DNA of 64,000 nt from an uncultured delta proteobacterium (GTDB taxonomy: Bacteria; Desulfobacterota; Desulfobacteria; Desulfobacterales; B30-G6). A model generated the notes under the pieces. The model had not been told where the DNA came from and did no database searches. It was given only the letters and a program-made list of their open reading frames with translations. A program made the position numbers and the translations under genes. This document shows positions 42,031 to 60,512 of this stretch, piece by piece (the stretch's first letter is position 1; every line of letters starts with the position of its first letter). The DNA is taken from NCBI GenBank assembly GCA_963823335.1, contig CAWGLD010000005.1:192001-256000 (forward strand), given 5' to 3'.

Positions 42031-42633
42031 ATGGCAATAGACGGAAATAAGATCATCCATGCGGTCATGGAAGGCAGCCGAATACGAGAGGCAAAAGGGA
42101 TTATCCCTCTTTTCGGTGTTTACCTCTCCATTTTATCGGTGGGATACTATAATAAGCTCAGTTTTGACTTCGAGCGTAGGATGGGTGATACAAACGCTGT
42201 CGAGGCCCGATCATTATTGACCAGGGCGGCCCAGGAGTGTGGTTACGCTACATTTCAGGGTATACGAAATTCGTGGGAATGGGATGAAATCATTAAACCC
42301 ATGATTGAATCCGAGAAAGACCAGGTCGAAGGATTTATTTCCGTAGCGGTCGCATTCGGGTGGGGGGATCTTGAAGTCAGGGAACTCATACCCAATGAGA
42401 AGCTCATCATTCGTGCGACTGAGTCTTATGAAGCCGGCGGCTATCTCAATGATTATGGTACAGCCGTCTCCAGCAAATGCTATATGCTTCGTGGTGTAGC
42501 GGGAGCTTTTATGGACCTTCTTTATGGGGACGCATATCCTGACGGCTGTTTTACATTTATGGCAGAGGAGCGGTTCTGCCGCGCAAAGGGAGATTCATAC
42601 TGTGAATTCATTGTTCGCAGATCATCTCATTAA
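42031..42633 (+). CDS. V4R domain protein
   Basis: FGWG, SYEA, CYMLRG, ERFCRAKGDSYCEF. Confidence 0.8.
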   Translation: MAIDGNKIIHAVMEGSRIREAKGIIPLFGVYLSILSVGYYNKLSFDFERRMGDTNAVEARSLLTRAAQECGYATFQGIRNSWEWDEIIKPMIESEKDQVEGFISVAVAFGWGDLEVRELIPNEKLIIRATESYEAGGYLNDYGTAVSSKCYMLRGVAGAFMDLLYGDAYPDGCFTFMAEERFCRAKGDSYCEFIVRRSSH

Positions 42634-42640
42634 TATCACC

Positions 42641-44857
42641 TTGAGACAGATCGAGCCCGCAGAGAAGCTATCGTGCTGGGAGATGTTTTCGTGCGACAAA
42701 GTTCTCTGCCCGGCTCACCGCCAACATCAGAAAGAGTGCTGGCTTATTCCAAAAACCCACTGTACGACCATCAAGGATGGTGACTTTATTAATAAATTTT
42801 CCTCCTGTCTGAGCTGTTCATATTTTCGTGCCAGAGGTGGGGATCCAAACTTTCGCGGTTGGAATCACTTCATTGCCAGACAACTTAACAATTACAACAT
42901 CCGCGCTCTTGAAAGGATTTATCAGAAGGAAGAGAGCTTTATCGAAATATTAAACCGCATCCCGGACGGGTTGTTTACCACCGACAGAGAGTGGCGCATC
43001 ACCTATTTCAACCCCAGTGCTGAAAAAATCACCGGCTTTTCAGCTCATGATGCAGTCGGAATGTACTGCAAAGATGTATTTAAAAATCCCATCTGTGAAT
43101 CTGATTGCGCGCTGAAGCGTGCGGTCGCAGAGCACCGGAATATTCACAATCGGGAGTACAACATAACCAATATTGACGGGAAAGAAGTTCCCATCATCTG
43201 TTCGACATCCGCTTTTTATGAAAGCTCAGGACGTATTTCGGGCGGATTGGAAATTTTCAAGGACATATCTGAAATTAAGCAGCTGCGGGGAGAAGTTGTT
43301 CGGCGTGAACGTAAATACCGTAGAATTTTCGAGGGAAGTCACGACATGATTTATACGACCAATTTGCTGGGAGATATTCTTGATATAAACCCAGCTGGTG
43401 TCGAGTTGATGGGTTATGAAGATAAGAACGACTTGCTGGAGGACAAAAACGCTTCACACCTGTACCTGCACCCAAAAGGTCGCGAAAAATTTATCAAGGA
43501 GATCAACCGCAAAGGTTATGTTAAAGATTTCGAGACCGATTTTGTGACGAGAAGCGGTAAGCCGCTGCATGTATTGATCTCGAGCCGGAGGTATGAAAAT
43601 CCAACGACAAATGACATCGAGTATGAAGGTATCATCAAAGACATTACCCATCGAAAGCAAACCGAAGAGGTTATCAAGGAGCGAAACCGCGAATTGTCCA
43701 TTCTGAACAGCGTTGCCGTTGCCCTGAATAACACCATGGACATGAACCACATTCTGAAAGTGACGCTGAAAGATGTTCTCAGAGCTCTGCGACTGGAGAA
43801 GGGTGCTCTTTTTCTAATCGATCATGAGAAAGAAAAGGCAAGACTCCAGATCAGGTCTGGTTTTCCCAGACCCCGGGACAACGGAAACATTGTTTTCGGG
43901 GACAAGATGTTGGAAAAGTATCTTCTAAAGAAGGCGCTGCCCCTAAAATCGGAGCCGACCTTCCCTTCATTTAAGGTGCGATATGAATCAAACAGCGGTC
44001 AGATAGTACCCTGGTTGTCGTGCTTCCTTATCACTTTCAAAGGCAAGGGGGTGGGGTTTTTCGGATTTGATCTTGCACTTGATCGAGAATTCAATCCCAA
44101 CGAACTGCATCTTCTCGGGTCAATCGGTAACTTCCTCGGTGGATCCATCGAGAACGCTCAATTGATGAAAATGATCCGGCTGCACCGGCAGGACCTGAGA
44201 CGACTCACGGAAAAACTGTTTCAGAGCCAGGAGGAAGAGCGCCGGCGTATTGCACGGGAACTGCATGACGAGGCCGGTCAATCCCTCACGGCCGTTAAAC
44301 TTGGGCTCGATCATCTGGAGGCTTCCTATGCCGATGAAAATAAAGCCCTCGGGAATGAAATATCCGAAATCCGTATAATGATTCAACGGACCGCGTCTGA
44401 AATCAGACGACTCTCATATCGTCTGCACCCGACGCTGCTGATCGATCTGGGCTTGCAGCCCGCGCTCAAACTCTATTTTAGGGAAATTGAAAATCACTCC
44501 GACCTGGATATCGACTTCAACATGGTGGGATTCGACCATCGGCTGAATGTCGATATCGAGACAGTATTATATCGATTCAGTCAGGAAGCACTTACTAACA
44601 CCCTGAAACATTCCGGTGCCGAAAATTTTCGTATTTCAATAATCAAGGGCTATCCGCGGATTATATTTTTAGCGGAAGATGATGGTATTGGTTTTGATTC
44701 TCAGATTGCCGGCAGGGATCGACGGAGTCTGGGACTGCTGGGAATGAGAGAGAGAACATCTCTTCTGGGTGGAACCTTCCAGCTTCGCAGCAAACCAGGC
44801 CAGGGGACTCGAATCCGGATTGAAATCCCGCTGCCCGAGGATCAAAGTTATGAATAA
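42641..44857 (+). CDS. PAS-PAS-GAF-like sensor histidine kinase (HisKA_3/NarX-type) with Cys-rich N-terminal CW domain; start uncertain
   Basis: CWE..C..CPA..CW..C motif, two PAS domains, ERRRIARELHDE, QEALTN, DDGIGF, GLLGMRER. Confidence 0.88.
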   Translation: MRQIEPAEKLSCWEMFSCDKVLCPAHRQHQKECWLIPKTHCTTIKDGDFINKFSSCLSCSYFRARGGDPNFRGWNHFIARQLNNYNIRALERIYQKEESFIEILNRIPDGLFTTDREWRITYFNPSAEKITGFSAHDAVGMYCKDVFKNPICESDCALKRAVAEHRNIHNREYNITNIDGKEVPIICSTSAFYESSGRISGGLEIFKDISEIKQLRGEVVRRERKYRRIFEGSHDMIYTTNLLGDILDINPAGVELMGYEDKNDLLEDKNASHLYLHPKGREKFIKEINRKGYVKDFETDFVTRSGKPLHVLISSRRYENPTTNDIEYEGIIKDITHRKQTEEVIKERNRELSILNSVAVALNNTMDMNHILKVTLKDVLRALRLEKGALFLIDHEKEKARLQIRSGFPRPRDNGNIVFGDKMLEKYLLKKALPLKSEPTFPSFKVRYESNSGQIVPWLSCFLITFKGKGVGFFGFDLALDREFNPNELHLLGSIGNFLGGSIENAQLMKMIRLHRQDLRRLTEKLFQSQEEERRRIARELHDEAGQSLTAVKLGLDHLEASYADENKALGNEISEIRIMIQRTASEIRRLSYRLHPTLLIDLGLQPALKLYFREIENHSDLDIDFNMVGFDHRLNVDIETVLYRFSQEALTNTLKHSGAENFRISIIKGYPRIIFLAEDDGIGFDSQIAGRDRRSLGLLGMRERTSLLGGTFQLRSKPGQGTRIRIEIPLPEDQSYE

Positions 44858-45512
44858 AAGCATACGAATCCTGATTGCCGACGACCATACCATTGTGCGG
44901 CAGGGGCTTGCCAGGCTGCTTGAGGAACAGGCGGATCTGAAAGTCATCGGTGAGGCAATAAACGGCCAGGATGCCGTGGAAAAAGCACTGGAACTCAAAC
45001 CCGACATCGCCATACTGGATATCGCAATGCCGCGTATGACCGGAATAGAAGCGGCCAAGAGAATTCGAAAGCGTCTGCCGGAAATCAAAATTATTATACT
45101 TTCCATGTACTCCCATGAACATTACATCGACGAACTAATTGAAACAGGTGTGTCGGGATATCTTCTGAAAGATTCGAGCGGCAGGGACATTATCAAAGCG
45201 ATCCGTGCTGCATTGAAAGACGAAACTTTTTTAAGTCCCTATATTTCCAAAAAACTGATAGAGAGCTATCTAACTCCAAAAAAAAATTCACTCAGGACAG
45301 ACAGGTATAAACAACTCACCAACCGGGAACGGGAAATATTTCAGTTAATTGCCGAAGGTCTTACAACCCGCAAGATTGCCGAAATGCTTTTTATCAGTAT
45401 CAGCACCGTTAAATCCCACCGAAACAAGATTATGGAAAAGCTCGAAATCGATTCGTCTGTGAAACTGGTTCACTTTGCCATTAAGCTTGGGCTGGTGGAT
45501 CCAGAGTTGTAA
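44850..45512 (+). CDS. NarL/LuxR-family response regulator
   Basis: IADDH, LDIAMP, GYLLK, LTNREREI, STVKSHR. Confidence 0.93.
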   Translation: MNKSIRILIADDHTIVRQGLARLLEEQADLKVIGEAINGQDAVEKALELKPDIAILDIAMPRMTGIEAAKRIRKRLPEIKIIILSMYSHEHYIDELIETGVSGYLLKDSSGRDIIKAIRAALKDETFLSPYISKKLIESYLTPKKNSLRTDRYKQLTNREREIFQLIAEGLTTRKIAEMLFISISTVKSHRNKIMEKLEIDSSVKLVHFAIKLGLVDPEL

Positions 45513-45753: not shown

Positions 45754-46710
45754 ATGTTTCAGCTCAGTAAGGAGCAAAAGGTTTGTGAAGTCGGTGGAGT
45801 GAAATTCGGTGGCCAGCCGGGTGAATACCCTTGTGTGTGTGTGAGTTCTATTTTTCAAAAAGGAGATAGGATTTTTGACGGAAAACGGAAGGAAGGCTTT
45901 AACGAGAAGAGGGCTGAGGAACTTTTAAAAGAACAAGAACGTCTGACCGTGGAAACCGGGGTTCCGGGAATGGCGGACATCGTCGCGAATACAGGAGAAG
46001 AGTTTAAAACCTATATCGATTTTGTTTCATCGGTCAGCAACATGCCGTTTTGCATCGACGCCTGGGTAATGAAACCGAAACTGGCCGGAGCGGCATATTG
46101 TGCCGAGAAAGGGTTGATGGATCGCATGTTCTACAACAGTCTCACCGTGTGGGAAAAGGATCTGGAGACTGAAATCCGCGAAATTTATCAACTGGGAGTT
46201 AAACACGTGCTCTTGGTCGCCTTTGACCAGGAAGACCAGATGCCCAGCGGAAGAATTACAGGTACCCAGAGACTGCTGGATGCGATTGATAAGGCGGGGG
46301 CGGAATTTGAAAGCATTTTCGTGGACACATCGGTAATGAACGGTCCGGCCACTGCCTTTTGTAGTATTGCCAATAGAATGATCAAAGAAAAGTGGGGTTT
46401 TCCCACCGGCAGCGCACCCAGCAACGGCTCCTATATGGATCTGACTAGATTCAAGGAAAACCTGGGTTTCAAAGGTTGGTCAGCCACGGATGCGGCTCTT
46501 GAATCTCTAGCTGCTTTTTTTTATCATGACATAATTTTTTCCGGACCAATGGCGGGAGCCGGCCGAATATTTCCTGCGGTTGCAGAAGCGGAGGCGTTTC
46601 TGGCTACCGCTGTTTTTGCCGAAACTAAAAAACTGCCAAAAGAACCGAGTCATCCATTGTACAAACTGTTCCCAGATTTTGTGGAGCAATTAAACGTTTT
46701 AGCCGGATAG
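45754..46710 (+). CDS. MtrH-family methyltransferase (likely methylcorrinoid:tetrahydrofolate methyltransferase)
   Basis: EQKVCEVGGVKFGGQPGEYP, SIF, PFCID, YNSL, GSAPSN, HPLYKLF. Confidence 0.88.
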   Translation: MFQLSKEQKVCEVGGVKFGGQPGEYPCVCVSSIFQKGDRIFDGKRKEGFNEKRAEELLKEQERLTVETGVPGMADIVANTGEEFKTYIDFVSSVSNMPFCIDAWVMKPKLAGAAYCAEKGLMDRMFYNSLTVWEKDLETEIREIYQLGVKHVLLVAFDQEDQMPSGRITGTQRLLDAIDKAGAEFESIFVDTSVMNGPATAFCSIANRMIKEKWGFPTGSAPSNGSYMDLTRFKENLGFKGWSATDAALESLAAFFYHDIIFSGPMAGAGRIFPAVAEAEAFLATAVFAETKKLPKEPSHPLYKLFPDFVEQLNVLAG

Positions 46711-46755
46711 ACATAAACTATTATCTACCCAAACATTTTTGAAGGGAGTTGAATC

Positions 46756-47808
46756 ATGGCAGAGCTTACACCAAAAGAACGCGTCATGCGATTATTGCGA
46801 AAAGAACCCATTGACACCATGCCGTTTTTCAGCGGGATGGGTATGGTCGTGATGCCGGGTATCGACAAAGCGGGTGTCAATTTCGCAAGCATTCATACCG
46901 ATGCAGAGCGGATGGCCCGTTCAGCGCTGTGGTCTTCGAGATTAATGGGATTTGACTGTGCAGTCATACCCTATGATATGACCATGGAATCGGAAGCGAT
47001 GGGCAATACGATCAGTCTTTATAAGGACAGTGAAGACATCCTCTATCCAACCATCCCGCAAAAAATATGGAGCACCATAGATGAGGTGAAGATTCCCGAC
47101 AATATCGTCGAACTGGGACGTCTGCCACTGATCCCCAAAGCCATCGAGGTTATCAAGAAGGAAGCTCCCGAGCTTCCCATCGGATGCTGGCAACTGGGGC
47201 CGTTTACACAGGCAGGCCAGATTCTGGAATTGGATTTGATTCTCAAGGGCGTGTTCAAGCAGAAAGCCAAGGTCGAGGAACTGCTGGATAAATTGACTGA
47301 CATGATCATCAAGATCGGTCAGTGGATGCAGGCCTCCGGGTGTGACTATATGACACTTCGTGAGCCAGGTGTTGCCGCCGATCTACTAAGCCCGCGGACC
47401 TTTCGCGATATCATCAAACCCAGGTTGACACGTATTCTGGAAGCGTGGGGCTCACCTAAATTACTGCACATATGTGGACAGACCGATCCGTTGATAGAAA
47501 TGATGAACGAGTGTGGTGCTGATGGTCTGACCGTTGATATAAAATGCAATCTTGCCGAAGCTAGGAAAAAACTGGGTAACGATGTGCTCCTGATGGGAAA
47601 TCTGGACACCTACACCATGACCTGTGATGAGAAAACACCTGTAGATAAGACTGTCGCGCACGTGAAAGAGATCATCGACAGCGGTGTCGACGCCGTTATG
47701 CCGGGATGTGATTTGTGGCCAGCAATCATTGAAGAAAATATGAAAGCTGTTTCGGATACGACCCACACGTACGGGAAAAAACCCAGCCCCGCCGTTGGAA
47801 GACTTTAG
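46756..47808 (+). CDS. MtaA/CmuA (UroD-fold) corrinoid methyltransferase
   Basis: ESEAMG, GRLP, GPFT, Zn motif LHICG ... MPGCDL intact. Confidence 0.88.
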   Translation: MAELTPKERVMRLLRKEPIDTMPFFSGMGMVVMPGIDKAGVNFASIHTDAERMARSALWSSRLMGFDCAVIPYDMTMESEAMGNTISLYKDSEDILYPTIPQKIWSTIDEVKIPDNIVELGRLPLIPKAIEVIKKEAPELPIGCWQLGPFTQAGQILELDLILKGVFKQKAKVEELLDKLTDMIIKIGQWMQASGCDYMTLREPGVAADLLSPRTFRDIIKPRLTRILEAWGSPKLLHICGQTDPLIEMMNECGADGLTVDIKCNLAEARKKLGNDVLLMGNLDTYTMTCDEKTPVDKTVAHVKEIIDSGVDAVMPGCDLWPAIIEENMKAVSDTTHTYGKKPSPAVGRL

Positions 47809-47880
47809 ACGCTCGTAATGTGACACCCTTGCAGGAACGGTTGAAATAAATGAAATCTGAAAAATAAGGAGAGAATACCT

Positions 47881-48540
47881 ATGGCAACAAAAGAAGAGTT
47901 ACTCGAAAAAATGAAAACAGCGGTTATCGAATGGCAGGAAGACGATATCGGCGGATATGCCCAACAGTTTCTGGATGATGGGCACGTGGCCCTGGAAGGG
48001 ATTATGGATGGATTGGCGGCCGGGATGGAAGTTGTCGGTGACTTGTATGATCGTAACGAATACTTCGTTCCCGAGGTGTTGATGTGTGCAGATGCGTTAT
48101 ATGCGGGTCTGGCTGTCCTGAGGCCCCATGTCCCAAAGTCGGAAAGTGGACCCAAAGCCCAGGTCGTTATCGGAAGCATTCAGGGAGATGTACACGATAT
48201 CGGCAAAAATCTGGTCAAGATGATGTTTGACGTGGCCGGATGGGAAGTTCACGACCTGGGTCGCGATGTGCCGCTGGAAAATTTTGTTTCAGAGCAGCTG
48301 CGGACCGATTCGGAAGTTGTGGCCATGTCGGCCATGATGACCACGACCATGATGGGTATGAAGAAGGTCATAAAAATGATCAAAGACAAGAATCCTGACG
48401 TGGCCATCATGCTGGGCGGGGCGCCGGTAACCAAGGATGTGGCCAATCTCTTTGGAGCGGACGGCTATGCCGAATCAGCTGGAAATGCCGTATCGGAAGG
48501 GATTAAAATGATCGGCCGCCTGCGGGAAATGCACAAATAA
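47881..48540 (+). CDS. Corrinoid (cobalamin-binding) methyl-carrier protein (MtaC/MttC-like)
   Basis: GMEVVG, EYFVPE, GDVHDIGKN (DxHxxG), SAMMTTT, GGAP. Confidence 0.95.
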   Translation: MATKEELLEKMKTAVIEWQEDDIGGYAQQFLDDGHVALEGIMDGLAAGMEVVGDLYDRNEYFVPEVLMCADALYAGLAVLRPHVPKSESGPKAQVVIGSIQGDVHDIGKNLVKMMFDVAGWEVHDLGRDVPLENFVSEQLRTDSEVVAMSAMMTTTMMGMKKVIKMIKDKNPDVAIMLGGAPVTKDVANLFGADGYAESAGNAVSEGIKMIGRLREMHK

Positions 48541-48559
48541 AAACAGCCCTGATGGACGA

Positions 48560-48600
48560 TACCCCGAACCATGAGTATCCCGTGAGAAGTGGTTCGGGGT
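48560..48600 (+). terminator. Stem-loop after the corrinoid gene
   Basis: ACCCCGAACCA ... TGGTTCGGGGT followed by TTGTT. Confidence 0.5.
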
Positions 48601-48673
48601 TTGTTGTGCGCTGAACATAAGTCATCCGCGTACGGTAGGCAATGCTAATTCAATTTGAGGAGGAATCTGGCGA

Positions 48674-50734
48674 ATGAGCGACGATAAAGCAATGGTAATC
48701 TTTCAGCCTTCTGGCCGAAGAGGGGAGATTGCTAAAGGGACCAATATAATTGAGGCATCTCGGTTGCTCGGGGTGGATATCGAAGCCCTTTGCGGGGAGA
48801 AGAAAGTCTGCGGGAAATGTGTTGTACGTATTGAAGAGGGGACTTTCGAAAAATACGGTATTACATCGAGTATAGAGAATGTGAGTTCATGGCAGGAGGA
48901 AGAGGAAAAATTCATCAATGCGGAGCGAAAACAGAAGGGATTTCGCTTGGGGTGTATGGCGAAGATCAACGATGATGTCCTCATTTTCGTTCCCGAGGAG
49001 TCACGTGCAGGGAAACAGGTGGTGAGCAAGGCTGCCCGAGATATTCACATCGAGCACGACCCGGCCGTGAAGGTTTACCATGTGCAGGTGGCGCCGCCAA
49101 CCTTTGAGGAACCCCTGGGTGATTTTGAGCGGGTTTGCCGGGGACTTCAACGGGAACACGGTCTAGGCGATCTGGGCATCGATGTTTTTGCACTCAGACA
49201 GCTGCCGGTTGCTCTGCGAGATGGGGACTGGGCCGTGACCGTGAGTGTGTGGAACGACAAAGAGGTCATCCGTGTTCGGCCCGGCAAGGAAGAGAAGTCA
49301 TACGGCTTGGCTATCGACGTTGGGACGACGACCGTTGCCGCTTATTTTTGCGACCTGACGACCATGGAAGTTATTGACACGGTTTCCATGATGAACCCTC
49401 AGTGTAAATACGGTGAAGACGTGATGGCACGCATCACGTACCATATGACCACACCGGATGGTCTTAAGCGGATGAGCGACGACATCATCGAAGGCGTAAA
49501 CGAGATGATCGACAAGGCGATTGATAACACCTTCCCGCCCAAGAAAAAGAAGAAGAAAAGAAAAGGGGAGGAGGGACCGGTAGAATATGTGGAAGCCCCT
49601 GAAGAAGGAAAGACCTACCTGAGGCTAACACATGAGGACATCGAGGATATCACCATCGGATTTAACACGGCCATGCACCATATATTTCTCGGGTTGGATC
49701 CGGAGTTTGTCGGACTTGCACCATTTCCGCCGGTCATTCACCATAGTATGGACATCAAAGCCAGAGACCTGGGTATCGGCATCAATCCTTCGTCCTACCT
49801 GTTCGTGCTTCCCATTGAAGCCGGATTTGTAGGTGCGGACAATGTGGGGGTACTGCTTGCCGAAGAACCCTATAAGCATGAAGAGAATCAACTGATCATC
49901 GATATCGGTACCAATGGTGAGTTGGTGCTGGGTAACCGGCACAAGTTGATTTCATCGTCATGTGCAACGGGCCCGGCCCTCGAAGGTGCTCAGATCGCAT
50001 TTGGTATGCGGGCGGCACCGGGAGCCATCGAACGGATATTGATCGACCCGGTAACCAAGGAGACAGACTACAAGGTCATCGGGCGTGATGCCTGGCGAAA
50101 GTTTTCCAAACCCAAGGATATGAAAGCCAAGGGCATCTGCGGTTCGGGTATTCTTGACCTTCTGGCCGAGTTGTACACATCGGGTGTGATCTTAAAAAGC
50201 GGTGTGTTTAACAAGAAGGCCCTGAAGGATCACCCCCGTTTCAGAATCAACCCGGATACCAAACAACCCGAGTTTGTTCTGGCCTGGGCTGAAGAGTCGA
50301 GTATCGACAAAGATATCGTCGTGACACAAAAGGATATCCGGCAGATTCAACTGGCCAAGGGGGCCTTGTATGCCGGCTGTAAACTGATGGTCAAACGGAT
50401 GGGACTTGAGAAGGTCGACCGGGTTAAAATAGCGGGTGCATTCGGCACACATGTGGATCGAACCAAGGCTCTGGTCATGGGTTTGTTCCCTGATTGTGAT
50501 ATCGACAAGATCGAAGGTGTCGGCAATGCCGCGGGTGACGGCTGTAGAACCGCCCTGTTGAACAGGAAGAAGCGTGCGGAAGCCAACTGGTGTTCTCAAA
50601 ATGTTGAATATATCGAACTTACCGTCGAAGAGACATTTCAGCAGGAATTTATGGAAGCCATGCAACTGCCGCATATGACGGATAAATTCCCACACCTCAA
50701 GGGTATCGTTCCGGATGACATTCTAAACCAATAA
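48674..50734 (+). CDS. ASKHA-type reductive activator of corrinoid proteins (RACo/DUF4445) with N-terminal [2Fe-2S]
   Basis: CGEKKVCGKC..RLGC, DVGTTT, GEDVMAR, GFVGAD, DIGTNGE, GPALEG, GICGSG, QLAKGA. Confidence 0.93.
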   Translation: MSDDKAMVIFQPSGRRGEIAKGTNIIEASRLLGVDIEALCGEKKVCGKCVVRIEEGTFEKYGITSSIENVSSWQEEEEKFINAERKQKGFRLGCMAKINDDVLIFVPEESRAGKQVVSKAARDIHIEHDPAVKVYHVQVAPPTFEEPLGDFERVCRGLQREHGLGDLGIDVFALRQLPVALRDGDWAVTVSVWNDKEVIRVRPGKEEKSYGLAIDVGTTTVAAYFCDLTTMEVIDTVSMMNPQCKYGEDVMARITYHMTTPDGLKRMSDDIIEGVNEMIDKAIDNTFPPKKKKKKRKGEEGPVEYVEAPEEGKTYLRLTHEDIEDITIGFNTAMHHIFLGLDPEFVGLAPFPPVIHHSMDIKARDLGIGINPSSYLFVLPIEAGFVGADNVGVLLAEEPYKHEENQLIIDIGTNGELVLGNRHKLISSSCATGPALEGAQIAFGMRAAPGAIERILIDPVTKETDYKVIGRDAWRKFSKPKDMKAKGICGSGILDLLAELYTSGVILKSGVFNKKALKDHPRFRINPDTKQPEFVLAWAEESSIDKDIVVTQKDIRQIQLAKGALYAGCKLMVKRMGLEKVDRVKIAGAFGTHVDRTKALVMGLFPDCDIDKIEGVGNAAGDGCRTALLNRKKRAEANWCSQNVEYIELTVEETFQQEFMEAMQLPHMTDKFPHLKGIVPDDILNQ

Positions 50735-51156: not shown

Positions 51157-51742
51157 AACGGTGGTACCGTTTCGATCCAATGCAGGCATATCTTACGCGT
51201 TGATGAACCGGCTTTTGAGCAGCGGAAAAAAATACGGGCTGAACGCAATATTCCCATTCAGCCCGGAAAAAATTGTCGTTGCCGAATGGGTACTTTTAAA
51301 GTGCCAGTACGGCTGCAGTTGCTACAATACCAACTGGACATGTCCCCCAACGACACCGGATCCTGAAAGGGCACGCGCGATTCTAAACGAATACTCGTTG
51401 GCGTTGTTTCTCGTCGGCAGCAGGAACTGCTCAGATTTTTACCTGGACAACTCGCGTAAACGCGCCAGTCAGGTAAAATGTTGGAAAGGCACCATATCAC
51501 TGGAAAGGATGCTTTTTCTTGAAGGTTACTATAAAGCGTTCAGTCTTGTGGGTGAATGCTGCGCTCTGTGCAAGAGCTGTGCATATCCGGAAGTTTGCCG
51601 GTTTCCACAGGAAAAAAGGCCCGCAGTGGAGTCTTTTTCGATCGATGTGATCAGCACCTTGCACAATCTTGAGACGAACTCGACCGTGGCAACAAAACTG
51701 GACGACAATTTCAACTATTTCTCGATCATTCTTCTTGAATAG
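51146..51742 (+). CDS. DUF2284 predicted metal-binding protein
   Basis: KCQYGC, WTCPP, CCALCKSC, CRFP..RP..E...IDV. Confidence 0.8.
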   Translation: MKTKTVVPFRSNAGISYALMNRLLSSGKKYGLNAIFPFSPEKIVVAEWVLLKCQYGCSCYNTNWTCPPTTPDPERARAILNEYSLALFLVGSRNCSDFYLDNSRKRASQVKCWKGTISLERMLFLEGYYKAFSLVGECCALCKSCAYPEVCRFPQEKRPAVESFSIDVISTLHNLETNSTVATKLDDNFNYFSIILLE

Positions 51743-52016: not shown

Positions 52017-53051
52017 ATGGCCAAACAAATGCTCATAGATGCTTATCGGGGAAAGATGACGCCCAAAGCACCGTGGGTACCGTATGCTGGTGTGCATTGT
52101 GCATTCTTGATCGAAGAAGAAGCCGATACAATGCTAAAAGATCCGGAACTTCTTGCAAAGGGTGTTGTGGAGGCAGCAAAACGGTACAAAGCAGACGGTA
52201 TCCCCCTTCTATTCGATCTCTCGGTGGAAGCCAACTCCATTGGTTGTGACTTGAAATGGTGGCCGGACAATGTTCCTTCTGTCCAGAATCATCCCTGTTC
52301 AGACAAAACCCCTCAGGACGCAGGACTTAAGCTCCCCACCAAGGATTCCGGCAGGTGGCCCGTTATTTTTGAGGCTGCAAGAATCGCCAAACCTCAACTG
52401 CAAGAGCTTGACTGCGCTCTTATGGGTCTTTTTTGTGGCCCGTTGACACTGGCGTCCCATCTGGCTGGTGTGCGTATCTTTACCGATGTATACAAAAACA
52501 GGGAATTTGCCCACGAAGTCGTGAAATTTGCAGGTGCGGTGGGTGCATTATCTGCACAATTCTATGCGGAAATGGGTTGTGAGATCATTGCCTGTGTGGA
52601 CCCGGTTGCCTCACAGATTAAGTCCGAAACCTTCAAGGAGTTCGTTACGCCTAATTGTCAAGAGGCGATTAAGGTTATTCACGACGCCGGATTGACCTCA
52701 TCCTTTTTTATTTGTGGCGACTGTACCAGGGTCATGGAAGATGTTTGCCAGATCGGTACGCATGGGTTTGCCATCGATGAACAGCTGAACTTGAATTTTG
52801 TACGCGACCTTGCGCGCAAACACGGTGTCGGGTTTGGTGGCAACTTGAAGCTGACCCTTGCTTTGAGCCTGGGTTTGATCTCCTCCAGAGAAGATGCCAT
52901 CGTGAGCCTTGCCGCCGGAGGGCAACACGGCTACACGTTTGCACCCGGCTGAGATATGCCATACGATGTTCCGGTGGAACATATGGACCAAGCGCTCGAA
53001 GTCAGGGATTGGTATGAACAATTCTATGCCAAGTATCCGGAATCTTGGTAA
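52017..53051 (+). CDS. MtaA/UroD-fold methyltransferase selenoprotein (APG-U-DMP)
   Basis: In-frame TGA 52950-52952 aligns with the PGCD Cys of paralog 46756; 32 further codons to TAA 53049-53051; SECIS-like hairpin. Confidence 0.9.
52959..52986 (+). promoter_or_regulatory. SECIS-like hairpin
   Basis: CCAU-ACG-AUGUUCC-GGU-GGAACAU-AUGG; loop 20 nt after UGA. Confidence 0.8.
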
Positions 53052-53078: not shown

Positions 53079-53468
53079 ATGGCAGATAAAATACACATAG
53101 ATGTTCTGACCCTGGACAGTGTTCAATGCGCTGCCTGCGGGTACATGATGGAGTCGATTGCCGCGCTCCCAGGTGATATACAGGCGGTGATCGAATACAA
53201 GGAACACTCGATTAAAAACAAAGAAGGTGTCGGTAAATTTCTCGAGCTCAAAGGCAAGGTGCTCCCAACGATTTGCATTGAGAACGATCTGGTGTTTGAG
53301 AGTATCATCCCGCAATACGAGGAACTCATCGACGCTATGGCTCAAAGAGCACCCAACGATGAATTACGGGAAAAGATTAAAGCCCTTCGCGAGCACGGTT
53401 TCGAGTTTGACAAAATACAGGAAAACCTGGCCAAGGCGGGCTCCGGTCAAAAAACGCGCGCGAACTGA
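53079..53468 (+). CDS. Thioredoxin-fold protein (C-A-A-C-G-Y-M)
   Basis: DVLTLDSVQCAACGYM, LPTICIENDLVFESIIP. Confidence 0.85.
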   Translation: MADKIHIDVLTLDSVQCAACGYMMESIAALPGDIQAVIEYKEHSIKNKEGVGKFLELKGKVLPTICIENDLVFESIIPQYEELIDAMAQRAPNDELREKIKALREHGFEFDKIQENLAKAGSGQKTRAN

Positions 53469-53602: not shown

Positions 53603-53905
53603 ATGTCCATAAATCATCTTGAGGGGGTACTGGCGTTAAAGCAGCTTGTAATTAGGCATGGACTGCCGAGAGACGATTATGCGTTCTTTGGTGTCAAATG
53701 TCCTTATTGCGGGAAAATGGATCGCATCTGCCGTTTGGATCCTCCCGGGAGACTGAAGCAGGCTATGGGTCCCGAGGACACACTGTCATATGCAGAGCGT
53801 TGGAATACGGTTTCCCTTCCTGATCATTTGTTGGGTGTGTGTAAATTTTGCCACAACCTCCTGAAGCTGGACGAGACGATGAAGGCCGCCCCCCTGGCCG
53901 AGTAA
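53603..53905 (+). CDS. Hypothetical Zn-ribbon-like protein
   Basis: CPYC ... CKFC pairs. Confidence 0.6.
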   Translation: MSINHLEGVLALKQLVIRHGLPRDDYAFFGVKCPYCGKMDRICRLDPPGRLKQAMGPEDTLSYAERWNTVSLPDHLLGVCKFCHNLLKLDETMKAAPLAE

Positions 53906-54040: not shown

Positions 54041-54286
54041 ATGAAAGTTGAAGTTTTGGGACCGGGATGCAAACGATGTGAAAAACTTTACACCAACACG
54101 ACCGAGGCTGCATCGGCTTTCAGTGCCTCAAACACGATTGAGGTTGTAAAGGTGAAAGACATAAAATATTTTGCAAAAATGGGGGTATTCATGACGCCCG
54201 GGCTAGTTATCGACGGTGAGCTTATTTCAACCGGAAAAGTGTTATCCCCCGAAGAAATCAAAAAGAAAATTGAGGAGAAAATGTGA
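54041..54286 (+). CDS. MTH895/TM0996-like small redox-active disulfide protein
   Basis: VLGPGCKRC, GVFMTPGLVIDG. Confidence 0.88.
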   Translation: MKVEVLGPGCKRCEKLYTNTTEAASAFSASNTIEVVKVKDIKYFAKMGVFMTPGLVIDGELISTGKVLSPEEIKKKIEEKM

Positions 54287-54289
54287 TCC

Positions 54290-55324
54290 ATGTTTGACAC
54301 GACGCGGGTATATTTAATTACGGGTTTTCTCGGAAGCGGCAAAACCACATTGTTGAATCGGATTATCGACGGCTTCCCCAAGGACAAAAAACTGACCCTC
54401 CTGGTAAACGAATTCGGCGAGGTAGGTGTGGACGGCACCTTGGTGGAGGGTGACGACATCGATATGATGGAAATCAGCAAAGGGTCGATTTTCTGTGTCT
54501 GTGTCAAAACCGATTTTATCAAAGGCCTGTATGAACTCAACACGAAAGTCAAACCCGATGTCCTTTTGATCGAATCCACCGGGGTGGCAAACCCCACTGA
54601 CCTGAAAAGAGATCTCAAACTTCCTATATTCAACGATCGGTTTCATTTTCAGGAGCAGTTCTGCGTCATCGATGCCGTCCATTTTATGGATGCTTTCGAA
54701 GTCTATGCTTCCCTCGAAAAACAGATTGCCTCGTCCAGTGTCTTTATTATTAATAAAACGGATATCGCAACGCCTGAAGGTATCGAAGCGATCAAAAAGG
54801 TGGTCCGGCAATTTCATCCGGACCCCTTGTTTTATGAGACCACCTATGCTGATTTACCACTGAATCGATTTTTTGACTTCAATGGGGGGCACAACCCGGA
54901 TACGCAGAGAACAAAAGCTTTGGTTGAGCATACCCATGTGCTATCCGAACAGGAGTTGGAGAGATTTCTCGATGATATGCTCGACAATCCTGACCTGGAA
55001 ATCACCCCACCGGATGCCCTTGTTTCCGTGGCCTATCAATGGGAAGGCAACAACCTTGAGCAGATTAAAAACATGGCCAGGGCATTGCCTGCCGATATCG
55101 TGCGTGCGAAAGGTTTTGTTGTCGCAGAGGGCAGCTTATTTATTTTCAACTATGTCATGGGAACCTGGAGTATAGAACCATCGAGGAAGCCGATGGAGCG
55201 CGTCGTTCATAAAAACATCATTGTCTTCATCGGTCCTCAGGAAACGATGGCAGGAATTGAATCTGTGATAAGCGGTGAAAACTGGAAAAGCAGGGGGATT
55301 TTTCAGCCCTATTCCGAGGGATAG
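54290..55324 (+). CDS. CobW/COG0523 GTPase (variant GSIFCVC motif)
   Basis: GFLGSGKTT, NEFG, GSIFCVC, ESTG, NKTD. Confidence 0.88.
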   Translation: MFDTTRVYLITGFLGSGKTTLLNRIIDGFPKDKKLTLLVNEFGEVGVDGTLVEGDDIDMMEISKGSIFCVCVKTDFIKGLYELNTKVKPDVLLIESTGVANPTDLKRDLKLPIFNDRFHFQEQFCVIDAVHFMDAFEVYASLEKQIASSSVFIINKTDIATPEGIEAIKKVVRQFHPDPLFYETTYADLPLNRFFDFNGGHNPDTQRTKALVEHTHVLSEQELERFLDDMLDNPDLEITPPDALVSVAYQWEGNNLEQIKNMARALPADIVRAKGFVVAEGSLFIFNYVMGTWSIEPSRKPMERVVHKNIIVFIGPQETMAGIESVISGENWKSRGIFQPYSEG

Positions 55325-55367: not shown

Positions 55368-56291
55368 GTGACGATGGATATGTATGATTTGATGATTGTT
55401 GGTGCGGGACCTGCAGGCATGACCGCTGCATTGTATGCGCAGAGGATGGGGCTGGATGTGCTTGTTTTTGGCGATATTGCCGGGGGCAGCACGTATATGA
55501 TCGAACAACTGAACAATTTTCCCGGGTTTATGAACGGGATTCCTGGAACCCAGTTCGGTCTTCAAACGTTTCAGCAGGCACAGCAAGAAGGCGCTTTCTT
55601 TACCATGACCCGGTTGGACGGCCTTTCTTTTGCAAACGGGCGGTTTATCGGAACCGATGCGGCCGGGAAATCGATCGTCGCAACGTGTGCCATTGTCGCT
55701 ACCGGAAGAACCCCCCAAAGATTGGACATTCCAAACGCAAATCTGAAAGGCATTCATTTCTGCTCGATATGCGATGGCCCTCTTTACAGGAACAAGCATG
55801 CGCATCTATCGGTCATCGGAAGCGATAACGCTGCCGGGCAGCATGCCATAGCCCTATCACGGGTGGCGGACAAAGTGCTCTTGGTTTGTCGGAGCGAGCA
55901 GCTGCTGATGGATGCTGTGCACCGGAAACAGATCGCATCCAAACAGAATCTCGATGTGCTTTGCGGAGTCGAAGTCTTGGGCTACGAGGGTCTCGACATG
56001 ATCGAGGGCATGAGGGTCAGGACAATGGAAGGTACTGAAAAACTATTGCCGGTGGATGGTGTCTTTCTGGCCATTGGCTGGCAACCGAATACAGGAATGC
56101 TGGATCTTGCCGCCGATACCACAGCGGAGGGCTATTTGAAGACCGATGAAAAATTAATGACCTCATTTCCAGGACTTTTTGCCGCCGGAGATGTCCGTAA
56201 TACAGATATGTGGCAGGTGTTGACGGCGTGTGCCGACGGCGCAAGGGCTGCCAAGCATGTTGCTGGGTTTTTATCGATCAGCCGACAATAA
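55368..56291 (+). CDS. Thioredoxin reductase-family FAD/NAD(P) oxidoreductase
   Basis: GAGPAG, ATG, CSICDG, FAAGDV; NADPH-binding GGG motif altered to IGSDNAA. Confidence 0.85.
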   Translation: MTMDMYDLMIVGAGPAGMTAALYAQRMGLDVLVFGDIAGGSTYMIEQLNNFPGFMNGIPGTQFGLQTFQQAQQEGAFFTMTRLDGLSFANGRFIGTDAAGKSIVATCAIVATGRTPQRLDIPNANLKGIHFCSICDGPLYRNKHAHLSVIGSDNAAGQHAIALSRVADKVLLVCRSEQLLMDAVHRKQIASKQNLDVLCGVEVLGYEGLDMIEGMRVRTMEGTEKLLPVDGVFLAIGWQPNTGMLDLAADTTAEGYLKTDEKLMTSFPGLFAAGDVRNTDMWQVLTACADGARAAKHVAGFLSISRQ

Positions 56292-56316
56292 AATAGTCAT
56301 AAGAGGAGGCAGCCGA

Positions 56317-57462
56317 GTGAAAGCACCGAAACCATTGACGCCAAACTCACCGGTCAAACTGATATTTACCGGTGGATTTCTAGGAACGGGCAAAACCACA
56401 GCCCTTGCAGTATTGGCAAGAGAACTCATCGGTCAGGGTAAACGGGTCGGAATTATAACCAACGACCAAAGCGAAAACCTGGCGGATACGATCATTGTCA
56501 AGCAGTTACTCGGCGAGTTGGGTGTGCCGGTAGAGGAGGTTGTTGAGGGTTGTTTCTGCTGCAAATTCGATGAGCTTATCGATCAGATGGAGAAAATTCT
56601 CGTACACAAACCGGATGTCCTGATGGGTGAACCTGTGGGGAGTTGTACCGATTTTGTCGCGGCGGTTGCCAACCCCATAAAGATTCATTACAGGGATGCT
56701 TTCAGATTCGCACCATTTTCAACCATGGTAGACCCTGTTCGGGTTGGGGAATTTCTGATGGAGGACACCCAGACGACTTTTCCAGAGGAAGTGTCCTATC
56801 TTTTTCGCAAGCAGCTGGAGGAAGCGGACCTGATTGTGCTGAACAAGATCGACCAGTTATCCGATCCGGAAAGAGAGCGGCTTGTGGACGTTCTCAAGAA
56901 AAACTATCCTAAAAAGGAAGTGATGCCTGTGTCGGCAAAATACGGAAACGGTATGTCCGAATGGCTCGATGTCTTGCTTTCCGGAAGCCCCGGTGCGGAC
57001 ACGGTTTTGCATGAAATCGACTACGATCGTTATGCCAGAGCCGAGGCAGTGCTGGGATGGCTCAATGCTGCCGTAAAAATTACCGCCGACCGGTCGTTCG
57101 ATTCCGCAGTATGTTTGCGGGATCTGGCAGTAAAGTTAAGAGATGCCTTCCGGGAGATAAATGCCGGTATCGGCCATATAAAAATTGTCATGACCAGTGC
57201 CGGAAAATCCATGTGGGTCAATCTTACCCACCTGGCCGCCGAACCGATGCTCAGCGATAAACAGCTGGGAGATATCCCCGGGGGCAGTCTCATTGTCAAC
57301 GCCAGGGTTCAGATCGTTCCCGAGGTACTGGAAACCATCGTGCGCAGCGCCATTGAAGAGACATCCGTTTCACAAGGCTTTCGATGGGAAATCATCGACC
57401 TGCAATGCTTCAGCCCGGCATATCCTAACCCGCCTTACCTGGTTCGTGAAGAAAGCGTCTAA
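56317..57462 (+). CDS. CobW/COG0523-like GTPase
   Basis: GGFLGTGKTT, NDQ, GCFCC, EPVGSCTD, NKID; GTG start after GAGGAGG. Confidence 0.85.
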   Translation: MKAPKPLTPNSPVKLIFTGGFLGTGKTTALAVLARELIGQGKRVGIITNDQSENLADTIIVKQLLGELGVPVEEVVEGCFCCKFDELIDQMEKILVHKPDVLMGEPVGSCTDFVAAVANPIKIHYRDAFRFAPFSTMVDPVRVGEFLMEDTQTTFPEEVSYLFRKQLEEADLIVLNKIDQLSDPERERLVDVLKKNYPKKEVMPVSAKYGNGMSEWLDVLLSGSPGADTVLHEIDYDRYARAEAVLGWLNAAVKITADRSFDSAVCLRDLAVKLRDAFREINAGIGHIKIVMTSAGKSMWVNLTHLAAEPMLSDKQLGDIPGGSLIVNARVQIVPEVLETIVRSAIEETSVSQGFRWEIIDLQCFSPAYPNPPYLVREESV

Positions 57463-59967: not shown

Positions 59968-60169
59968 ATGATATGGCAGTATAAAAACTTAGGTGTTGCG
60001 ATGCATGCGTGTCACATCTCATGGTCCGATTTTACCGCCGAAACATATTTGAAAAACCGGCCCATGTCAACAGAATGACTCATGTACAGTGGTCGAATCG
60101 TTTTGCAACACTTCTTCCCGAAATATGGGCGAAAAATTCTGATCAATACATGAAAGGTCAACTTACAAT

Positions 60170-60508: not shown

Positions 60509-60512
60509 AATT

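Follow-up and report, generated by a model that had tools for sequence, protein, structure and literature searches.

Can a TGA codon in the gene for a methyltransferase of the UroD/MtaA fold specify selenocysteine (Sec), and if so, what might Sec do at a position where this fold commonly has a metal-binding Cys? These questions are raised by a gene of an uncultured delta proteobacterium of the lineage B30-G6 (Desulfobacterales), found in a 64,000-nt stretch of DNA that is called the window below (assembly GCA_963823335.1, contig CAWGLD010000005.1, positions 192,001-256,000, forward strand). From its ATG at 52017, the gene runs to a TGA at codon 312, directly after the residues YTFAPG. A first-pass annotation, made from the sequence alone, had proposed that the frame continues past this codon with Sec in place of a metal-ligand Cys. 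The frame is indeed open, reading U-D-M-P-Y-D-V-P-V-E-H and onward for 32 codons to a TAA at 53049-53051, with 27 nt left before the next ATG at 53079. As had also been noted, the upstream paralog starting at 46756 has MPGCDL at the aligned place; the same paralog features HIC where the Sec protein features FIC (SSFFICGD). The features of the locus are collected in Table 1.

Table 1. Features of the Sec gene and its surroundings in the window, with their occurrence among 80 homologous loci where counted.
Feature	Position	Strand	Details
PAS histidine kinase and LuxR-type response regulator, cluster head	42524..45512	+	10/80 and 17/80 loci
MtrH-like protein	45754-46710	+	21/80 loci; corrinoid methyl-transfer core 45754..50734
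Canonical HxC...C MtaA-like paralog	46756-47808	+	44/80 loci
Corrinoid protein	47881-48540	+	45/80 loci
RACo activase	48674-50734	+	53/80 loci
Cys-rich DUF6951 protein	50758-51156	+	55/80 loci
Cys-rich DUF2284 protein	51104-51742	+	42/80 loci
Sec-containing UroD/MtaA-fold protein	52017..53051	+	344 aa, U = residue 312; PF01208 E 6e-45
UGA read as Sec, codon 312	52950..52952	+	TGA in 80/80 loci; Cys in 5 natural homologs
Candidate bacterial SECIS hairpin	52959..52986	+	core stem 52966-52972/52976-52982, loop 52973-52975, outer stem 52959-52962/52983-52986
Thioredoxin-like partner	53079..53468	+	129 aa; CAAC motif (C17, C20), cis-Pro loop VLP 61-63; 77/80 loci
100-aa protein, two CxxC pairs (CPYC...CKFC)	53603..53905	+	no family match; homolog in 35/80 loci
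Small thioredoxin-fold protein (Thioredoxin_3, GCKRC)	54041..54286	+	PF13192 E 1.3e-21; 48/80 loci; true TGA stop
CobW/COG0523 GTPase (metallochaperone family)	54290..55324	+	PF02492 E 5e-39; 69/80 loci
Thioredoxin-reductase-like flavoprotein (CSIC motif)	55368..56291	+	TIGR01292 233 bits, below cut-off 343; 39/80 loci
Second CobW-like GTPase, start codon uncertain	56230..57462	+	PF02492 E 1.4e-23; 26/80 loci

Conservation and Decoding of the In-Frame UGA

The gene was compared with homologs at 80 loci, one per species, that are 68-88% identical. All 80 have TGA at codon 312 followed by an open and conserved frame. Gene catalogs present these proteins differently, with 116 of the 120 best database homologs called as proteins of 307 or 311 aa, i.e., ending at codon 312, while the remaining four (P0025, P0078, P0110, and P0118) are full length and all have Cys at this position. 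A fifth natural Cys-312 homolog, P0123, is 60% identical, and every more distant relative has Cys at the position aligned to UGA. Carriers of the Sec gene include Desulfotomaculum copahuensis and Desulfococcaceae bacterium HSG9. In a tree of 90 rows, built with the genome's second Sec paralog left out, the five Cys forms are scattered, one being basal and four nested inside the Sec clade; their distribution needs at least five changes between Sec and Cys, four of them forced by well-supported branches. Thus, both the alternation between Cys and TGA and the conservation past the codon that the first-pass annotation had suggested looking for are present, and homologs neither end nor lose conservation at this site, nor do the close relatives all have TGC or TGT. 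As judged from the alignments, a TGA that is kept with an open and conserved frame behind it lies far beyond chance, and the family occurs in 80 species or more, all of them sulfate reducers or their relatives.

Bacterial SECIS elements are stem-loops that lie shortly past the UGA and have a G in the apical loop (the criteria of bSECISearch), and a candidate that fits this description is found here. Its core stem of 6-7 bp begins 14 nt past UGA and pairs AUGUUCC with GGAACAU around the loop GGU, flanked by an outer CCAU/AUGG stem. Of 239 codons, only four show no synonymous change among 75 sequences, and these (317, 318, 319, and 321) form the stem. The stem is unchanged in 49 of 49 distinct sequences, and the loop follows the pattern G-G/U-N in all 81 sequences compared. 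A register shift with covariation was also observed, as nucleotides 15 and 34 pair in 9 of the 10 sequences with C at nt 33 vs. 14 of the 71 others (Fisher p = 2.6e-5, uncorrected for relatedness). The folding energy of the hairpin is not unusual in single-sequence folding (z = -0.37; 66 of 200 shuffles fold as well or better), and nothing in the window matched an Rfam family at gathering thresholds, so the case for the hairpin rests on conservation as opposed to stability. The strong hairpin with an outer stem that had been described is therefore present in that form and has a conserved stem, but it is no more stable than shuffled sequences. UGA-312 would be decoded as Sec with the help of this hairpin.

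The genome encodes the machinery that such decoding calls for. Its tRNA-Sec scores 75.4 bits (cut-off 47) and is called by ARAGORN as SeC with the anticodon tca, and SelA (524 bits), SelB (373 bits, cut-off 242), and SelD (372 bits, with a TGA of its own) exceed their curated cut-offs as well. A second paralog of the Sec protein in the genome is 69% identical and has the same TGA and the same hairpin core. In the cluster of this paralog, the Sec protein is the sole UroD-type enzyme; its neighbors are methyltransferases of the MtmB-like and MttB-like kinds, a corrinoid protein, and an activation domain of the MetH type.

If TGA were a real stop, whether through nonsense mutation, sequencing error, or programmed truncation, the product would have 311 residues, which is where gene callers and NCBI/JGI annotation do terminate the protein; the ordinary stability of the hairpin and the empty Rfam scan would agree with this. 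Such a stop is extremely improbable, given that 80 of 80 species keep the TGA together with the downstream frame and conserved sequence, that natural homologs have Cys precisely at codon 312, that frozen synonymous sites are confined to the hairpin, and that a complete Sec machinery is encoded. General reassignment of TGA is ruled out, because TGA is the ordinary stop of the genes at 53079-53468 and 54041-54286. Taken together, the comparative evidence confirms the Sec assignment of the first-pass annotation, with UGA-312 as a genuine Sec codon. Metatranscriptome contigs overlap parts of the gene and run across both the TGA and the boundary with the downstream gene, although contigs of this kind cannot show transcription, strand, or read-through. 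In run X14, the summed metatranscriptome depth is very high over 52906-53039, a value that is not interpretable.

The Fold and the Cys/Sec Site

The Sec protein matches PF01208 with 154 bits (cut-off 23.9). Its AF2 model (pLDDT 95, pTM 0.93) is closest in the PDB to MtaA (4AY8, TM 0.88, rmsd 2.1 Å), which is also the sole PDB sequence match (E 1.4e-20, 23% identity), and the fold that had been named for this gene is therefore borne out by sequence and model alike. Scores against the MtaA/CmuA family model TIGR01463 (116.8 vs. a cut-off of 235.4), NF004889 (108.6 vs. 244), and the MtaA/MtbA equivalog models (MtaA equivalog, 97 vs. 400) remain far below the curated cut-offs. Sec312 aligns with the second Cys of MtaA, that of the PGC motif, and Cys233 aligns with the Cys of HxC. 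Asp254 and Glu255 are invariant and align with the carboxylate adjoining the MtaA site. Sec312 and Cys233 would thus be neighbors at the barrel mouth, in the place at which zinc is bound by His-Cys-Cys in MtaA.

The S-methyltransferases of this superfamily feature a His-Cys-Cys zinc sphere (PMC10418091), and this sphere, as known from the MtaA/CmuA family, is not present in the Sec protein. The first-pass annotation was correct that the His ligand is missing, with Phe231-x-Cys233...Sec312 found in place of the HxC motif and its distal Cys. Since the zinc-binding His is absent, zinc binding is not to be assumed. In a set of 40 sequences that reaches down to 29% identity, at least 90% have F231, and the residue is likewise present in P0134 and throughout the 80 loci of the fused relatives. 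Beyond what had been noted before, Phe-x-Cys is, across these sequences, a mark of the whole subfamily and not peculiar to one gene.

The Thioredoxin-Like Partner and the Gene Neighborhood

The gene for a thioredoxin-like protein lies mostly 14-45 nt downstream of the Sec gene in the loci that have it. Its CAAC and VLP motifs are invariant in 25 sequences, and its family matches are weak only (NF047660, 33 bits vs. a cut-off of 105). Natural fusions of the barrel with a thioredoxin domain also exist (P0129, P0131, P0133, and P0134), and Lutibacter oricola encodes one of this kind; in the fused family, the Phe, both Cys, and the CxxC are kept in P0134 and in 80 of the 80 loci found with it. In P0158, another relative, both barrel Cys and the CxxC are lost together. 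Among the rows listed for the 80 loci, the partner, orf81, and the reductase have only Cys motifs, with no Sec forms.

A complex of barrel and partner was predicted with the natural Cys-form homolog P0025 (80% identical) standing in for the Sec protein and with a custom alignment. The median score of three runs was 0.91 vs. 0.39 for the best control; for comparison, 116 of 157 solved complexes attained that mark, as did 2 of 215 mismatched pairs. The three runs have at least 88% of contacts in common, and the partner has a pLDDT of at least 85. The predicted interface includes residues 233-235, 312-313, and 315 of the barrel and residues 15-19, 61-63, and 75-81 of the partner, so that in this prediction the CxxC of the partner is docked against Cys233 and Sec312. 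The CxxC, the cis-Pro loop, and the 75-81 loop form the usual target-binding face of a thioredoxin. In the predicted complex, the partner spreads over the entire barrel mouth and, while docked, would therefore keep the corrinoid protein out.

The wider neighborhood combines corrinoid, redox, and metal-related genes (Table 1), with counts for the corrinoid methyl-transfer core that are limited by contig ends. As in the MtaA/CmuA family, the Sec gene is encoded with a corrinoid protein and a reductive activase, and the same is seen in the cluster of the second paralog. In the fused relative P0131, the small thioredoxin-fold protein forms a third domain. A Sec-containing fusion of its ORF to CobW across the TGA at 54284 was considered and rejected, as the ORF is a complete Thioredoxin_3 protein with a true stop. 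Two families, DUF2284 and the MTH895/ArsE-type thioredoxin, are mentioned by NCBIfam in arsenic-linked selenoproteins. Of the 80 loci of fused relatives, 46 also have a CobW gene. Zinc-dependent corrinoid methyltransferases are known to be accompanied by COG0523 proteins (PMC2770081). Here, however, the CobW genes may serve cobalt/B12 handling and not zinc, because a third CobW gene lies in the window as well, along with two genes each for MeaB and for corrinoid adenosyltransferase.

Proposed Function, Alternatives, and Significance

We propose, with a probability of roughly 60%, that the Sec protein is a corrinoid-dependent "MT2"-type methyltransferase whose metal-holding Cys/Sec site is kept reduced by a dedicated thioredoxin chain. 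The corrinoid protein, the RACo activase, and the MtrH-like protein encoded upstream support the MT2 role at the level of gene content, as does the cluster of the second paralog. We infer the following as to how a metal is bound, how the pair cycles, what the substrate is, and which way the methyl group moves. Together with the corrinoid protein encoded nearby, the enzyme would serve as a methyl-corrinoid methyltransferase. A soft metal, most likely zinc loaded by the CobW GTPases, would be held by the Cys/Sec pair, probably along with Asp254/Glu255, and this metal would bind a soft substrate atom (of a thiol, selenol, or metalloid) while the methyl group moves to or from cobalt. The pair may oxidize readily to a selenenylsulfide, upon which the thioredoxin-like partner would dock its CxxC and re-reduce it with electrons from the thioredoxin-reductase-like flavoprotein.

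An alternative possibility, which we hold only tentatively, is that the pair works without metal. Cys233 and Sec312 would then cycle between selenol/thiol and selenenylsulfide with each turnover and couple corrinoid methyl chemistry to a two-electron reduction, with electrons passing from the reductase-like flavoprotein through thioredoxin-fold proteins to the enzyme. The compound reduced could be, for example, a methylated sulfoxide or a methyl-metalloid intermediate in the pentavalent state, of the kind known from arsenite methylation. Loss of the His ligand across the subfamily would fit such a pair, as would the typical placement of Sec in redox sites, a thioredoxin-like partner that is almost obligatory (77 of 80 loci, plus the fusions), and its predicted docking through the CxxC, the cis-Pro loop, and the 75-81 loop. 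The thioredoxin-reductase-like gene and the two families with arsenic-linked selenoproteins point the same way, but the reductase is encoded in only about half of the loci, a count limited by contig ends. Asp254/Glu255 moreover remain invariant, CobW metallochaperone genes are conserved near both the Sec and the fused families, and such a mechanism is known for no UroD-fold enzyme. It is doubtful, and somewhat more so, that the site has ceased to be a zinc site altogether and become a catalytic selenenylsulfide switch, reduced by thioredoxin on every turnover, through which the UroD barrel couples cobalt-methyl chemistry to two-electron reduction.

A covalent role for Sec, one of the options raised in the first-pass annotation, is improbable. 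Here, a Se-methyl-selenocysteine would form as an intermediate between substrate and cobalt, or Sec would serve as a sacrificial methyl acceptor. A selenolate is strongly nucleophilic, but a selenoether is a poor methyl donor, which makes a catalytic relay chemically unattractive, and the relay leaves Cys233, the thioredoxin-like partner, and the CobW genes without explanation. A precedent may be seen in the Sec form of methylated-DNA-protein-cysteine methyltransferase, the Cys of which accepts a methyl group, among the predicted selenoproteins of a 2026 review (PMC13188914). The review also lists Sec forms of arsenite methyltransferase and of the corrinoid protein HgcA; as in the Sec protein described here, Sec stands in for a Cys to which a soft atom or a methyl group binds, and the redox setting is non-classical, while the folds differ and none of these entries belongs to the UroD superfamily. 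The "unusual non-oxidoreductase use of Sec" of the first-pass annotation consequently needs tempering, both because Sec forms of methyl-transfer proteins are already listed there and because the gene is tied to redox proteins. Given its ties to the thioredoxin-like partner, a second thioredoxin-fold protein, and the thioredoxin-reductase-like protein, thiol/selenol redox chemistry may be part of its function.

The proposed methyltransferase can be compared with several known systems. It has the (beta/alpha)8 UroD fold and the accompanying corrinoid protein and activase genes in common with MtaA, the methylcobamide:coenzyme M methyltransferase of Methanosarcina mazei (4AY7/4AY8), while differing by Phe for His, Sec for the second Cys, and a thioredoxin-like partner of its own. 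Coenzyme M is not expected in a sulfate-reducing host. The zinc/homocysteine barrel of MetE, the metal ligands of which are His, Cys, Glu, and Cys, is structurally related (Foldseek matches). Upon zinc loss, its two ligand Cys form a disulfide (PMC539065), which is the chemistry proposed here for Cys233/Sec312, but MetE has no corrinoid partner, Sec, or dedicated thioredoxin. The Mlp proteins of type 1 mlp clusters, one of which (ClMlp2) is a methylcobalamin:selenide methyltransferase, are likewise bacterial, MtaA-like, encoded with a corrinoid protein and an activase, and linked to selenium biology and Sec-using genomes (Kountz & Balskus, PMC10418091). They almost invariably feature His-Cys-Cys as opposed to Phe-Cys-Sec and, in the portion of that paper considered, are not reported as selenoproteins. 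By description, type 1 mlp clusters are further set apart in lacking a tetrahydrofolate methyltransferase, while the Sec cluster has an MtrH-like gene (PMC10418091). The mec cassette of anaerobic dichloromethane catabolism (10.1101/2021.08.30.458270), likened to the Sec cluster by description, has a similar set of sensor kinase/regulator, corrinoid protein, MtaA/CmuA-type and MtrH-type proteins, and RACo, along with a DUF protein and additional methyltransferases of the UroD-like type whose role is unknown. Thioredoxin, CobW, and Sec are not mentioned in the portion of the preprint considered, according to which close homologs (>35% identity) of mec were not found outside dechlorinating Firmicutes.

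No UroD/MtaA-family selenoprotein was found in the published texts consulted. As to the curated selenoprotein lists with which a comparison had been suggested, the main text of the 2026 review (PMC13188914), its table included, has no UroD-type entry (searched as PF01208, UroD, and URO-D), and the main texts of PMC1976440, PMC12013277, and PMC1242214 gave none either. Because nearly all of the best database entries end at the Sec codon, an active-site residue and 32 conserved residues are missing from current annotations.

The finding places selenium at the catalytic center of a B12-linked methyltransferase fold. To our knowledge, the metals for which Sec has been documented as a ligand are Ni, Mo, and W, and zinc is not among them. 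In either case, the site would be new for the superfamily, as a Zn-Se site or as a zinc site turned into a redox switch. If the selenenylsulfide switch is true, it would represent a new reaction class for the UroD fold, e.g., one in which a metalloid or an oxidized methyl-sulfur compound is methylated or demethylated with the help of a corrinoid and at the expense of thioredoxin. Its counterpart with cysteine would be the proteins in which barrel and thioredoxin are fused, known here from Bacteroidota, Clostridia, and the Planctomycetes-Verrucomicrobia group. A much wider, unstudied unit is also uncovered. It combines a Phe-x-Cys...Cys barrel, a CobW GTPase, and a thioredoxin-like domain, and it is present in many anaerobes as well as in marine bacteria that degrade polysaccharides. 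Ultimately, the likely substrates of the Sec enzyme, namely methylated sulfur, selenium, and metalloid compounds, bear on sulfur and trace-element cycling in sediments.

Selenocysteine codon and candidate SECIS hairpin

The gene for the selenocysteine (Sec) protein begins with an ATG at 52017, preceded by a GGAGAG ribosome-binding site, and its codon 312, directly after ...YTFAPG, is TGA (52950-52952). The frame continues for 32 further codons (DMPYDVPVEHMDQALEVRDWYEQFYAKYPESW) to TAA at 53049-53051, 27 nt before the ATG (53079) of a thioredoxin-like (Trx-like) gene; the interrupted frame, extension and gap described in the first-pass annotation are thus all present in the window sequence. One genome per species was scanned for homologous loci, giving 162 stretches that encode relatives, of which the best 80 (68-88% identity) were used. 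Most of these belong to Desulfobacterales or other Thermodesulfobacteriota; Desulfotomaculum copahuensis, one Bacillota MAG and one Spirochaetia MAG are also represented. TGA stands at the aligned codon in 80/80 of these best loci, with a strongly conserved tail in open frame behind it. Among the 120 best protein-database matches, 116 are 311 or 307 residues long, i.e., they end at the Sec codon; matches are named 'uroporphyrinogen decarboxylase family protein' (NCBI) or 'MtaA/CmuA family methyltransferase' (JGI). Four full-length matches among the same 120 (74-80% identity) have Cys at position 312, as does the database homolog P0123 (60% identical). The proposed Sec codon and its alternation with Cys are therefore borne out by natural homologs, and this comparative evidence establishes that TGA-312 encodes selenocysteine. 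General reassignment of TGA was considered and rejected, TGA being an ordinary stop in nearby genes.

A maximum-likelihood tree was built quickly from 81 Sec, 5 Cys and 4 outgroup sequences (90 rows, without the second paralog of the genome). It places P0123 at the base and the remaining four Cys forms, all long-branched, at four separate places inside the Sec clade. No fewer than five Sec/Cys changes are required, four of them forced by well-supported branches. Such scatter, as read from the tree, is typical of an old Sec family in which Sec has occasionally been replaced by Cys. The host genome (4.37 Mb, 11 contigs) encodes the Sec machinery searched for, namely tRNA-Sec (75.4 bits, cut-off 47; called SeC, anticodon tca, by ARAGORN), SelA (524 bits), SelB (373 bits, cut-off 242) and SelD (372 bits). 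One in-frame TGA in selD indicates that SelD is itself a selenoprotein in this host.

The hairpin with an outer stem reported downstream of the TGA is present as described. In a gap-free alignment of 75 coding sequences, 239 codons specify a conserved, degenerate amino acid, and only four of these (317 GAT, 318 GTT, 319 CCG and 321 GAA) lack any synonymous variation; they coincide exactly with both hairpin arms, and the median relative synonymous entropy outside them is 0.85. All 49 distinct sequences share the same six inner pairs, and the loop among 81 sequences is GGU (59), GGC (13), GUC (4), GUU (3) or GGA (2). Ten sequences have C at nt 33 and thereby lack the closing A-U; in 9/10 of them the stem can shift register by forming a 15-34 Watson-Crick pair, vs 14/71 of the others (Fisher p = 2.6e-5, uncorrected for relatedness). 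Folding stability of the hairpin does not exceed that of shuffled sequence (z = -0.37), and Rfam gives no match.

Marine-sediment metatranscriptome contigs (runs X7 and X18) cover parts of the Sec gene with 0-1 differences. Among relatives' contigs, X13 record 1 spans the TGA (52062-52987), and X13 records 4, 6 and 7 and X14 record 16 cross the junction to the Trx-like gene. Being RNA-library contigs, which are unable to show transcription or read-through, these are a weak hint of Sec-gene expression. Summed contig depth in run X14 is about 600-780 over the TGA-hairpin stretch (52906-53039) vs 15-80 elsewhere in the gene, a peak that may reflect many related organisms stacking on the invariant hairpin.

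Fold and metal-site residues

The MtaA/UroD fold claimed for the Sec protein is upheld by its match to Pfam URO-D (E 6e-45) and by an AlphaFold model (40 aligned sequences; pLDDT 95, pTM 0.93) whose top structural match is MtaA (TM 0.88, rmsd 2.1 Å), followed by uroporphyrinogen decarboxylases and the MetE zinc barrel. It scores far below the cut-offs of the curated MtaA/CmuA, MtaA and MtbA models, and NCBIfam release 20 has no model dedicated to the family. By sequence, Methanosarcina mazei MtaA (4AY7; E 1.4e-20), with zinc ligands His240, Cys242 and Cys319, is the only relative that has been solved. Aligned to 4AY7, FIC falls on HIC, PG-U-D on PGCG and Asp254 on an MtaA Glu. S-methyltransferases of the UroD/MtaA superfamily hold zinc by His-Cys-Cys, and O-demethylases replace these Cys residues (Kountz and Balskus, PMC10418091). 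This zinc sphere and the alignment place Sec312 at the second zinc-ligand Cys position, with Cys233 kept. Thus, whereas MtaA has the zinc-site motifs HIC and PGC, the Sec protein has Phe for His and Sec for the second Cys. The paralog at 46756 likewise has HIC and, as originally read, MPGCDL, where the aligned Sec protein has FIC and APG-U-DM.

The loss of the His ligand noted in the first-pass annotation is seen subfamily-wide, with Phe231 on the His of MtaA HIC. Among 1455 relatives found by an exhaustive profile-free search, the Sec family forms a single 50%-identity cluster, the nearest others being 30-38% identical. An alignment of 40 sequences, the most distant at 29% identity, has Cys233 throughout, and Phe231, Cys312, His27, His92, His148, Asp254 and Glu255 are at least 90% kept. 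His27, His92, Cys133, His148, Cys233, Asp254, Glu255, Sec312, Asp313 and His322 are invariant in 75 Sec sequences, and Cys236 is Ala in 32/75. The Phe-x-Cys site is, on these alignments, a subfamily trait common beyond the window's gene.

Thioredoxin-like partner and fused relatives

The Trx-like protein, which has weak family matches only, is encoded directly after the Sec gene in 77 of the best 80 of 162 loci, at a distance of 14-45 nt in the 75 loci with both genes delimited (single exception, 184 nt). In the 30-38% relatives P0129, P0133 and P0134 (about 460 aa), this Trx-like domain is fused to the barrel C-terminus, and the fusion P0131 (539 aa) has an additional MTH895/ArsE-type thioredoxin domain, the counterpart of the window's Thioredoxin_3 gene. 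Hosts in a sample of 80 fused-family loci (L090-L169) include Synergistota, Clostridia (Christensenella tenuis), Bacteroidota (Lutibacter oricola), Kiritimatiellota (Pontiella sulfatireligans), Planctomycetota, Verrucomicrobiota and others. The Phe and the Cys pair of the barrel, as well as the CxxC, are kept in 80/80 of these loci and in P0134, and none of them has TGA at the Sec-aligned codon. In a single case, the fused relative P0158 (455 aa), barrel Cys 233 and 312 and the CxxC are lost together.

Complex prediction paired the window's Trx-like protein with P0025, a naturally occurring Cys-form homolog that stood in for the Sec protein (80% identity, colinear, with Cys233 and Cys312), and used a custom alignment. 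The score was 0.91 (median of three runs) vs 0.39 for the best control, a mark reached by 116/157 solved complexes and 2/215 mismatched pairs; at least 88% of contacts were common between runs, and partner pLDDT was at least 85. On the enzyme side, the confident interface spans the mouth of the barrel and takes in residues 233-235, 312-313 and 315; on the partner side it is formed by the CxxC region (residues 15-19) and by residues 61-63 and 75-81. The Trx-like protein is thus predicted to bind the barrel with its CxxC docking onto the Cys/Sec pair. We know of no complex of like kind.

The fused family is widespread and apparently unstudied, and usually adjoins a CobW GTPase (46/80 loci), often a corrinoid protein (20/80). 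In marine polysaccharide degraders, its genes are found in loci that resemble those for sugar utilisation (GH2, AraC, rhamnose mutarotase, P450); the order in Lutibacter oricola is glycoside hydrolase, AraC regulator, UroD-like enzyme, corrinoid protein, barrel-thioredoxin fusion, CobW, MetH-type activation domain, P450.

Gene set and proposed function

Features and their occurrence in Sec-family loci (best 80 of 162, limited by contig ends)
Feature	Position	Strand	Loci	Remark
Sec gene	52017-53051	+		344 aa
Candidate SECIS hairpin	52966-52982	+		AUGUUCC-GGU-GGAACAU; outer stem CCAU/AUGG
Trx-like gene	53079-53468	+		129 aa; invariant DSVQCAACGYMMES motif, VLP loop
Four-Cys protein	53603-53905		35/80	100 aa
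Thioredoxin_3 protein	54041-54286		48/80	
DUF2284	51104-51742		42/80	
CobW-type GTPase			69/80	
DUF6951			55/80	
RACo activase			53/80	
Corrinoid protein			45/80	
Canonical MtaA-like enzyme			44/80	
Thioredoxin-reductase-like flavoprotein			39/80	
Second CobW			26/80	
MtrH-like enzyme			21/80	
Third CobW	40318-41364	-		
Two MeaB GTPases	39362-40300; 58468-59967 (-)			
Two ATP:corrinoid adenosyltransferases	60513-61031; 63262-63813 (-)			
FeoB	29826-32018			
Peripla_BP_2 periplasmic binding protein; DUF1638				within corrinoid/metallochaperone island
selD	G000 contig C5:144246-145172	-		in-frame TGA
Second Sec paralog	C7:372465-373493; locus L170 7966-8994	-		
Fusion, Lutibacter oricola	L116:6989-8362			
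Fusion, Pontiella sulfatireligans	L147:6974-8380			

The window is a corrinoid and metallochaperone island, including regions 33549-41364 and 58468-63813. Between the two thioredoxin-fold genes lies the gene for the four-Cys protein, a possible zinc ribbon that has two CxxC pairs (CPYCG...CKFCH) and matches no family. The DUF2284 protein is similar to the C-terminal half of the double selenoproteins that NCBIfam lists as MbdU and ArsM/DUF2284 (scores of 68 and 64 bits, both far under the cut-offs) and has Cys only (GECCALC); its gene overlaps the DUF6951 gene end by about 50 nt, so the true start is probably a later ATG. One COG0523 subfamily adjoins zinc-dependent corrinoid methyltransferases, according to Haas et al. 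(PMC2770081).

The second Sec paralog (69% identical) shares the TGA and the hairpin core GUUCC-GGC-GGAAC. Its cluster encodes MttB-like and MtmB-like methyltransferases (no in-frame stops), a corrinoid protein, a MetH-type activation-domain protein, an HdrA-like flavoprotein, a GntR regulator, urocanase and histidine ammonia-lyase; no Trx-like or CobW gene adjoins it. As the sole UroD-type enzyme among these methyltransferases and the corrinoid protein, it fits the slot of MT2, the type acting on methyl-corrinoid.

Beyond the Sec codon and its signal, the fold, the Sec position, the Phe-x-Cys hallmark, the gene set and the fusions, which are established, we think that the Sec protein is a methyl-corrinoid methyltransferase. 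A soft metal, loaded by CobW, would be held by Cys233 and Sec312 together with Asp254/Glu255 and would bind the substrate through a soft atom. The Cys/Sec pair would oxidise readily to a selenenylsulfide with loss of the metal, much as the two zinc-ligand Cys of MetE oxidise with metal loss (PMC539065), and the Trx-like protein would restore it with electrons from the reductase-like flavoprotein. The main rival is that Cys233/Sec312 forms a catalytic redox switch without metal, for which the loss of the zinc-ligand His, an almost obligatory thioredoxin partner and the use of Sec at this site all speak; the conserved carboxylates and the presence of CobW genes argue against it.

Full-text literature searches and the main texts of selenoproteome papers, as far as accessible, yielded no UroD/MtaA-family selenoprotein, and the available text of a May 2026 review with Pfam/NCBIfam-listed selenoprotein families (PMC13188914) contains no PF01208, UroD or URO-D. 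Sec forms of other methyl-transfer proteins are already known from that text, and the Sec family is therefore not categorically new. The main new result of the analysis is the thioredoxin link. As the docked Trx-like protein would, on the prediction, cover the entire mouth of the barrel, binding should alternate between it and the corrinoid protein.
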